Virus record (IMG/VR): IMGVR_UViG_2802429241_000010
Coordinates: 1 to 52,885 of that record
DNA: 52,885 nt
Direction: 5' to 3' (one strand)
Source: a virus
Taxonomy: Duplodnaviria; Heunggongvirae; Uroviricota; Caudoviricetes
Below, one piece after another: positions 8,105 through 9,370 of the stretch (position 1 is the stretch's first letter; each line of letters begins with the position of its first letter). A program made the position numbers and the translations under genes. The notes under the pieces were generated by a model, which saw nothing but the letters and a program-made list of their open reading frames with translations, was not told the DNA's origin and searched no databases.

Positions 8105-9370
8105 ATGAACATCTGCAAATGCTTCAAATGCGATACCTGCGGTACATTGATCGATTGCAGGATTGGCATGTCCAACAGAGAAGTACAACCATTTCAGTTT
8201 GCTTGCCCGGTATGTGAGGAATGTATTTCTTTCATTATTGGCCATCCGGATGGAACGTTAAAAGGGGCAGAGGACATTGTTGATTTTGATGGGCCATTTA
8301 AAGGGGAAAACCCATTTGTCGATTTGCATCTAGATTTCCCTGCCTACTTTGGCAAGTACGAAATGGGGAAAACGACATTTATACGGGTTGTCAGTGAACT
8401 TGGTGAAGACGCATATTATCATCTTGCTCAACGCCTTGAGGTATTGAATCGCCTTCTTCCGATGCAAAGAGACTTGCAGCGCATTATTACCCAGTACAAA
8501 CGTGGCGACATCGATAAGTTAGATGGGATCTGCAACAAGATACCCGGGGTTACATTGCGTTCTCATAAAAAACAAGACGTATTGGCCGCGTTGTACTCAG
8601 CTACTTCAATCATGTCATCCCCTTTTACTATTCATGAGCAAAACGAAGAGCTTTCTAATGAACTACCTGGTCTTTATCAATGGCTTCACGCGCATCATCA
8701 TGACAAAACTGTCGCTTATATTGATGAGATTCTGGCAAATAATTTCCTCCAAAATCTGCATCAAGACTGCCTTAGTCTTTACCCTAAAATCATCGAGTTA
8801 GATCTGCCATTTCGCGCGACGTTCTTTTATGACTACGTTAAAGAGGGGGAGTACAACCCGGTTGCTGCAAGGATTTCAACAACAGATTTTGATACCTGTA
8901 ACAACTTTTATAAAGACTTAGCAGAAGTGTTTTCTAGGCAGTTGATCTTATTGGCGGGGATTAACAATCTTCTGCATCGCGGTGATCACAATGAATTTGA
9001 ACCCTCTTTGAAAGTGACGAGAAGGAATGAGCCGCGCCGGGAGGCTGTTTCATTGAATGCTTTTGCCGATGCCGACCTGGGAACCAAACTCCAGTTTATT
9101 GATAAATGCTTCTACAAGATTGATGAAACGGCAATTGATAATCGACTAAGAAACGGGATAGCCCATTACAAATATGAGTACAAGGAGTCTACTCAGGTCA
9201 TCACGTATTACCCTTTCAAAGAAGGGATGAACAGAGAGAAAGCACAAGAAATTACGTTCATTGAATTCATTCGTAAGTCACTGCTTTTGTTTAGAGAAGT
9301 TCACAACTTGAATCATCTGATCAAGACAACGCTTTACTACTGTGTGTTGGTATTGAAAAAGGATTTCTGA
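8105..9370 (+). CDS. Hypothetical protein with N-terminal zinc ribbon and possible C-terminal HEPN motif
   Basis: 421 aa; CKCFKCDTCG…CPVCEEC Cys cluster; RNGIAH (Rx4H) encoded at 9149–9166; AT-rich. Confidence 0.6.
   Translation: MNICKCFKCDTCGTLIDCRIGMSNREVQPFQFACPVCEECISFIIGHPDGTLKGAEDIVDFDGPFKGENPFVDLHLDFPAYFGKYEMGKTTFIRVVSELGEDAYYHLAQRLEVLNRLLPMQRDLQRIITQYKRGDIDKLDGICNKIPGVTLRSHKKQDVLAALYSATSIMSSPFTIHEQNEELSNELPGLYQWLHAHHHDKTVAYIDEILANNFLQNLHQDCLSLYPKIIELDLPFRATFFYDYVKEGEYNPVAARISTTDFDTCNNFYKDLAEVFSRQLILLAGINNLLHRGDHNEFEPSLKVTRRNEPRREAVSLNAFADADLGTKLQFIDKCFYKIDETAIDNRLRNGIAHYKYEYKESTQVITYYPFKEGMNREKAQEITFIEFIRKSLLLFREVHNLNHLIKTTLYYCVLVLKKDF

Follow-up and report, generated by a model that had tools for sequence, protein, structure and literature searches.

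The 52,885-nucleotide stretch of DNA analyzed here (IMG/VR virus record IMGVR_UViG_2802429241_000010, Caudoviricetes; hereafter the window) carries at positions 8105–9370, on the plus strand and with the stop codon included, a gene for a 421-residue protein that combines a predicted N-terminal zinc ribbon with a C-terminal domain resembling HEPN ribonucleases. The gene starts with ATG, and its product opens with the segment MNICKCFKCDTCGTLIDCRIG...FACPVCEEC. The open reading frame (ORF), its AT-rich composition (41.6% GC, versus about 55% in proA and in the first 4.8 kb of the window) and its divergent orientation relative to an HNH endonuclease gene (6988–7647, minus strand) are as described in an initial annotation made from the sequence alone. 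That annotation also proposed a zinc ribbon and a possible HEPN RNase motif, RNGIAH, encoded at 9149–9166. Computed from the ORF start, the codon of R349 indeed begins at 9149 and that of H354 ends at 9166.

The protein yielded no match to Pfam or PADLOC models at E ≤ 1, nor to NCBIfam models. In a database clustered at 90% identity it has 329 homologues, every one annotated as hypothetical and without a Pfam domain, and an exhaustive profile search retrieved 448 cluster representatives at 50% identity. The full-length architecture, with about 400–470 residues, is kept down to E ~1e-12 in profile searches. Members are found in Alpha-, Beta-, and Gammaproteobacteria, with scattered matches elsewhere. 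Some homologues are listed with 400 residues and could be taken for natural N-terminal truncations; for at least one of them (L011), this was rejected as a gene-call artefact, the Cys cluster being encoded in frame upstream.

Conservation was computed on 60 full-length relatives that share 17–55% identity with the target protein. The sole invariant columns are C34, C37, R349, and H354, and positions C9, C12, R19, D271, E274, N288, and N350 are conserved in at least 90% of the sequences. The Cys cluster noted initially is thus present, but only part of it characterizes the family: the conserved pattern is CxxC-x21-CPxC (C9 and C12, 0.93 each; C34 and C37, 1.0 each), whereas C4, C6, C18, and C40 are lineage-specific, with a conservation of only 0.02–0.22. 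The zinc ribbon is the best-conserved module overall, with a domain identity of 0.74 in alignment A1 and 0.31 in the distant-relative alignment A2, and zinc-ribbon Pfam matches in the relatives are weak. As the initial annotation cautioned, an Rx4H string could be coincidental, since 0.77 such strings are expected per protein of this composition. RNGIAH gains its meaning not from the motif by itself but from the relatives, all of which keep R349 and H354 and 98% of which keep N350; two overlapping Rx6H matches in the protein are unconserved.

Four distant relatives (alignment A2) have gained a metal-binding SEC-C motif at the C-terminus (Pfam SEC-C, E = 3e-9). The only PADLOC models matched among the 60 relatives are PDC-S12 and E2, in a few members with such an appended motif. 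PDC-S12, which corresponds to YecA, a SEC-C-motif protein, matches 4 of the 60, the same number that carry Pfam SEC-C, and was rejected as an assignment for the target. Most likely, the PDC-S12 and E2 matches of the four relatives reflect the appended tail and not the core of the protein.

AlphaFold2, supplied with the family alignment, returned a confident model (predicted local distance difference test, pLDDT, 88.1; predicted template modeling score, pTM, 0.89), and a separate model of residues 257–421 reached a pLDDT of 93.8. Residues 1–45 (8105–8239) are modeled as a classical Cys4 zinc ribbon, which would bind zinc: the knuckle C9xxC12 lies between strands 2–9 and 15–21, and the knuckle C34PxC37 between strands 28–33 and 40–45. 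A variable middle region follows (residues 46–261; 8240–8887), composed of short beta elements, a helical bundle (helices within 91–243), and a low-confidence linker (244–261); it is a candidate specificity or regulatory region. The C-terminal domain (residues 262–421; 8888–9367) comprises a helix (262–292) that bears D271, E274-x3-R278, N288, and R292, a partly helical insert (293–345), the motif helix (346–353), a beta-hairpin (357–368), and a long final helix (385–416). Its first bundle helix is probably supplied by the last helices of the middle region.

In the motif and its surroundings, this arrangement corresponds to what has been described for the HEPN superfamily, whose members fold as an up-down bundle of four helices, have an insert separating helices 2 and 3, end helix 3 with an Rx4–6H motif that runs into a loop and has a polar residue (N, D, or H) directly after the arginine, and carry an upstream acidic residue, typically within Ex3[KR], in helix 2 (PMC3710099). 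In the target protein, the motif reads R349-N350-G-I-A-H354, and in both models it closes helix 346–353, with H354 opening the loop that leads toward helix 385–416. Helix 262–292 provides the upstream residues E274-VFS-R278, with E274 conserved in 97%, an arginine or lysine at position 278 in 70%, and D271 in 92% of the relatives. The insert precedes the motif helix, and the beta-hairpin after the motif is reminiscent of Csx1, in which a hairpin follows the HEPN motif immediately (PMC3710099).

Similarity searches gave a fainter signal. Foldseek comparison of the whole model with the PDB retrieved nothing at E ≤ 0.001, sequence profile searches of the PDB with three family alignments (A1, A2, and A5) returned noise only, and no Pfam HEPN model was significant for the target or its relatives, all such matches being sub-threshold. 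The sole Pfam family matched by more than one C-terminal domain was pEK499_p136 (PF18736), with sub-threshold matches in 4 of 22 domains and a best E value of 0.009. Using hhalign, we compared the C-terminal profile with a profile from an alignment built on the namesake protein of this family and obtained E = 1e-4 and a probability of 57% over 37 columns, with the segment LRNaIaH aligned to lRNSVAHF, so that the predicted catalytic R349–H354 motif stands in register with RNSVAH. For orientation, a published census of the superfamily accepted HHpred probabilities of 75–98% (PMC3710099).

Taken together, the conserved Cys4 and RNxxxH positions, the predicted fold, and the register of the pEK499_p136 alignment lend computational support to the initial suggestion of a zinc ribbon joined to a possible HEPN RNase. 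Structure prediction, which had been proposed as a check, gave a divided answer: the helices and the placement of the motif are HEPN-like, but Foldseek found no counterpart in the PDB. We consider it likely that the C-terminal domain is a divergent HEPN domain, and the proteins probably constitute a new HEPN family with a zinc ribbon, unnamed and so far unannotated. Several points weigh against an interpretation as a defense nuclease. The motif helix (346–353) is short; the bundle's first helix is assigned to the middle region by deduction; and the family conserves its zinc ribbon more than any other module, contrary to what would be expected of a simple arms-race sensor like the zinc-finger domain of the RAZR system, considered below. 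To these may be added, although it is uninformative, that the family's signature peptides had no match in the part of the DefensePredictor supplementary tables that was searched. It is conceivable, if rather unlikely, that this domain represents a generic bundle of helices whose R/H pair binds a ligand, a nucleotide, or a protein, or cleaves DNA, and whose likeness to HEPN is convergent or non-catalytic; the faint database similarities would suit such a protein, and the joint conservation and HEPN-like placement of R349, N350, H354, and E274 argue for the divergent HEPN domain.

Among known defense systems, RAZR (PD-T7-4) resembles the target most. RAZR joins a Cys4 zinc ribbon to a divergent HEPN domain of the DUF4145 family in which R146 and H154 are both essential for defense; it is activated by assembly around phage portal or Gp77 rings, cleaves single-stranded RNA nonspecifically, and acts by abortive infection (PMC13017515). 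Like the protein studied here, as we interpret it, it is encoded by a single gene, carries an N-terminal Cys4 ribbon and a C-terminal divergent HEPN domain with a conserved R/H pair, works with no partner, and is found in mobile or defense regions. The two differ, however, in several respects. In RAZR, the zinc-finger domain (residues ~1–65) is followed by a linker (66–79) and directly thereafter by the HEPN domain, whereas the 421-residue target has about 215 additional, variable residues in between; the RAZR motif is Rx7H (R146...H154) instead of Rx4H; and the zinc-finger domain is the specificity-determining sensor in RAZR, whereas in the target family the ribbon is the module that varies least. 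DUF4145 (PF13643) had no match to the target at E ≤ 1 and was found neither among the 25 of 36 Pfam families listed for the 60 relatives nor in the 22 C-terminal domains. Membership in RAZR/PD-T7-4, a system defined by DUF4145, was therefore rejected on the grounds of DUF4145, PADLOC, and architecture; we presume that PADLOC includes a PD-T7-4 model, since other Vassallo PD-T systems are represented there. In its logic, RAZR is nonetheless the closest known system.

The family pEK499_p136 is the only HEPN family with recurrent, albeit sub-threshold, similarity to the target, and it is likewise plasmid- or island-borne in enterobacteria. It differs in being a stand-alone HEPN protein of about 160 residues, without zinc ribbon or middle region, and in working with a second gene in DS-28, a validated DefensePredictor system made up of a hypothetical protein and a HEPN family nuclease near-identical to pEK499_p136 (PMC13092281). 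The hhalign result, at 57% over 37 columns, is not enough to place the target in this family by sequence. On plasmid pEK499 itself (L015, 36727–38013), we noted that the gene for the 166-residue namesake protein lies directly upstream of a gene for a 257-residue hypothetical protein. DS-38 (WP_001313577.1) and HEC-08 are further validated single-protein defenses that unite a HEPN RNase with Cys-rich zinc modules, and in HEC-08 mutation of the HEPN histidine abolishes defense; both have the reverse order, with the HEPN domain N-terminal and several zinc fingers C-terminal. DS-38 was rejected as a member of the same family because of its reversed domains, a BLASTP E value of 1.0, and an hhalign probability of 0.7%, and HEC-08 because of its reversed order and its DUF3644 HEPN domain. 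DUF3644 was not among the 25 of 36 Pfam families listed for the relatives, nor among the 22 C-terminal domains. An Abi2/Swt1-clade HEPN domain fused to a zinc ribbon is known from the Npun_R5629 type (PMC3710099, Table 1); the target family shows a single, sub-threshold Abi_2 match.

The gene appears to act alone. Three near-identical copies, in the window, in an ENA contig (L001), and in a Leclercia plasmid (L014), have only the DNA of window positions 8054–9389 in common, which comprises the ORF, 51 bp upstream, and 19 bp downstream. At 54 family loci, where the two nearest ORFs of at least 80 residues were surveyed on each side, no neighbor family recurs (the largest cluster has three members), and neighbor strand and spacing vary freely. 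Because the copies share no more DNA than this and no neighbor recurs, we regard the gene as a single-gene module with no space for a protein partner.

The same observations bear on a reading of the protein as the toxin of a toxin–antitoxin or plasmid-addiction module that stabilizes plasmids or islands and has no part in phage defense, with an unrecognized antitoxin in the form of a small RNA or a peptide of fewer than 80 residues. HEPN domains are common as toxins of such modules, HepT being an example; family copies lie on plasmids and beside HigBA, ParE/PhD, and CbtA/CbeA modules; and very small partners could escape the neighbor survey, given its size limit. However, the segment common to the copies in three different replicons leaves no space for a separate antitoxin gene, and neither a recurrent neighbor family nor a fixed strand or spacing is seen at the 54 loci. 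We consider a toxin of this kind improbable, slightly more so than a generic helical bundle.

The surroundings of family members include both defense and mobility genes. Gabija lies immediately upstream of a member in Cellvibrio, and GAPS4 lies beside a member at the Klebsiella proBA locus, which corresponds to the thrW neighborhood in E. coli. Among 150 flanking ORFs, strong PADLOC matches were obtained for GajA, GajB, HerA, a pAgo with SIR2, IetA, a type I methyltransferase, and the MADS component mad8, and mobile-element genes in the flanks encode resolvases, integrases, IS110 transposases, a coupling protein, and Mu-like functions. At the Klebsiella locus (L005–L008, 7227–7754), a 175-residue protein with a weak Pfam MtlR match is encoded directly upstream of the family member, both beside GAPS4; MtlR has been counted among the HEPN families (PMC3710099). 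Copies with 95–97% amino acid identity are present on Yersinia ruckeri plasmids, including the conjugative plasmid pWKY, and on Leclercia plasmids. Among 50,697 phage genomes, none had a match. The gene is present on thirteen IMG/VR contigs, on several of them at or near the contig end, and a nucleotide search of 5,426 complete E. coli genomes returned no match.

In the window, the gene is bracketed by remains of Tn3-type elements. On its left lies a Tn3-derived inverted-repeat miniature element (TIME; 7767–8020, minus strand) that is, along its full 254 nt, 78% identical to ISfinder MITESen1; its outer inverted repeat (7767–7804) marks where the cassette ends on the left, and its second inverted repeat (7983–8020) points inward. 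On the right, a terminal TIME remnant of about 60 bp (9371–9431, plus strand) lies inverted relative to 7767–7823 and is decayed, with one indel and mismatches. The stop codon of the gene is 1 nt from this remnant and 23 nt from its 38-bp inverted repeat (9394–9431). The 38-bp repeats at both outer ends are of the Tn3 type (GGGGTC...ACGTTAAG) and match published inverted repeats of Tn3-derived miniature elements, and those of the window have decayed, with five mismatches at one end and one indel plus mismatches at the other. They are flanked by a probable target-site duplication, TGTATT at 7761–7766 and TGTATA at 9431–9436, matching at five of six positions. Between the TIME and the start codon, a candidate sigma-70 promoter (GTGAAA-17-TAGAAT; 8042–8070, plus strand) can be picked out by consensus match only, and promoter-like sites around the gene are not more numerous than in shuffled sequence.

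The cassette is better preserved on pWKY (L013), which shares with the window the DNA of positions 7767–9432, both ends of which are inverted repeats. There, the TIME (5660–5915; 82% identical to MITESen1) and the remnant (7267–7327), both unannotated, end in perfect 38-bp inverted repeats at 5660–5697 and 7290–7327 (GGGGTCGGTTTGGGAAACGGAAAATTTTGTACGTTAAG), flanked by the 5-bp direct repeat TGAGA. TIMEs are non-autonomous, are mobilized in trans by Tn3-family transposases, and generate duplications of 5 or 6 bp, and direct repeats together with inverted repeats are the signature used to infer transposition as a unit (PMC13367494). The pWKY copy shows this combination: Tn3-family inverted repeats, no transposase, and a direct repeat of 5 bp. 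The TIME has relatives in 1,746 plasmid records. In agreement with published TIME-COMPs (PMC13367494; PMC4133298), the cassette includes a full MITESen1-like copy, 38-bp Tn3-type inverted repeats, and, on pWKY, the direct repeat; it differs from those in the TIME-COMP survey in that they carry antibiotic-resistance cargo between two full TIME copies, whereas here a putative defense nuclease is accompanied by one copy and the ~60-bp remnant (PMC13367494). Judged from sequence, the gene is the sole cargo of a TIME-COMP-like cassette with predicted mobility.

Bracketing repeats occur at 4 of 62 family loci (the window, its sister strain L096, pWKY, and partly L001), and because they are limited to these loci of one lineage, the protein is to be seen as cargo and not as a transposition factor. 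That it might be an accessory factor helping the cassette to transpose or resolve, as its place between Tn3-type inverted repeats with target-site duplications and a stop codon abutting the remnant could suggest, is effectively refuted by the 58 loci that lack the repeats, by the definition of TIMEs as elements mobilized in trans by Tn3-family transposases (PMC13367494), and by the protein's want of any transposase or resolvase similarity.

The reading that we favor, with a probability of roughly 60%, is that the gene encodes a stand-alone, three-module HEPN abortive-infection nuclease, delivered here as the sole cargo of a decayed Tn3-family cassette. The protein would begin with a Cys4 zinc ribbon, continue with a helical middle region that evolves fast, and end in a divergent HEPN domain, in which R349-x4-H354, N350, and the upstream E274-x3-R278 may build a metal-independent RNase site. 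As in other HEPN enzymes, two protomers would pair to create a composite active site, and the enzyme is probably inactive until phage infection or another trigger alters its assembly state. Once activated, it would cleave cellular and phage RNA and thereby stop translation, a defense of the abortive-infection type for which no partner gene would be required. RNase activity, zinc binding, dimerization, trigger-dependent activation, and a defense phenotype are what we infer for the protein. As for its arrival, the cassette, consisting of the MITESen1-like TIME, the gene, and the terminal remnant, would have integrated where a CP4-like island ends beside a tRNA-Thr gene and decayed thereafter.

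The recipient locus can be followed by comparison with other strains. Compared with E. coli ET245, the window contains an inserted block (7736–9527) that holds the cassette and separates the HNH gene from tRNA-Thr where the CP4-like island ends. This insertion is also found in a sister strain (L096), which encodes a 100% identical protein; there the block runs directly into tRNA-Thr and proA, and the strain has the island but no prophage. The HNH endonuclease (PADLOC REase_II, E = 5e-21) is paired with a Dcm-type C5 methyltransferase (5939–7009), the two genes being convergent and overlapping, and upstream of this pair (5939–7647) a CbeA/CbtA type IV toxin–antitoxin pair is encoded at 4861–5539 on the plus strand. 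In E. coli, the Dcm/HNH pair stands next to tRNA-Thr (thrW) in 12 of 15 cases among the matches listed. We rejected the pair as a functional partner of the gene, as ET245 has it beside tRNA-Thr without the gene and it is missing at the 54 other loci; the gene adjoins the HNH gene because the cassette inserted there.

The gene had initially been described as ending at a perfect 19-bp hairpin. A perfect hairpin exists (9441–9487), but its stem measures 21 bp, and it begins 71 nt beyond the stop codon, outside the cassette. It has a 5-nt loop, a predicted folding free energy of −37.5 kcal/mol (z = −8.4), and no T tract. Megablast against the 5,426 complete E. coli genomes did not find the hairpin, and ET245 keeps a degenerate half of it only. 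As a terminator of the gene it was rejected, since it lies outside the cassette, lacks a T tract, and is absent 3′ of the gene in pWKY, L001, and L014. The hairpin belongs to the recipient locus, where it lies just to the right of the cassette insertion point.

A prophage of about 42 kb (9741–51440) integrated later at the same tRNA-Thr(CGT), in tandem with the CP4-like island; the 3′ half of the tRNA gene is duplicated at 9693–9740 and 51441–51516, the two prophage ends. Its genes include those for the integrase (50263–51426), the large terminase subunit TerL (32091–33824), the capsid protein (28808–30013), the tape measure protein (22529–24361), and the antiterminator Q (39418–40170). At the att-distal prophage end (10211–12621, minus strand), we observed genes for a 478-residue Ser/Thr kinase, whose long C-terminal half is unannotated, and an adjacent 205-residue ORF product. 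The kinase matches the PADLOC models mad6 and PD-T4-6 (E values from 1e-25 to 1e-20), its neighbor has no family match, and E. coli M8 and other strains share the region at 99.8% identity; it looks like a kinase-based defense moron. The most AT-rich islet of the prophage (37096–38849, minus strand; 34–36% GC) encodes a 428-residue DUF6575/DUF7226 protein and an overlapping 154-residue ORF product with no Pfam match. It directly adjoins the Q gene at the lower-coordinate side, on the same strand, a typical moron position.

Beyond the individual gene, we tentatively propose, without regarding it as the likelier outcome, that the protein is the first representative of a new and widespread antiphage system composed of one protein, with its 448 clusters mostly in Proteobacteria, in which the hypervariable helical region would act as a phage sensor between the conserved ribbon and the HEPN domain. 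In the same proposal, the cassette would be the first example found here in which a TIME-COMP-type Tn3 mini-transposon has moved a defense gene, instead of one for antibiotic resistance, between plasmids and islands of the chromosome. If this is true, the division of labor would differ from that in RAZR, where the zinc finger senses. Confirmation would add a sizeable unannotated family to the HEPN abortive-infection nucleases, one that defense-annotation pipelines miss because Pfam, NCBIfam, and PADLOC contain no model for it. The conserved catalytic and zinc modules with a diversifying helical region between them would mark the latter as the place to seek trigger recognition. TIME-type elements stay unannotated in genome records, and the TIME-COMP survey addressed resistance-gene cargo (PMC13367494); Tn3-derived miniature elements may also carry immune genes back and forth between conjugative plasmids and tRNA-linked islands of the chromosome.

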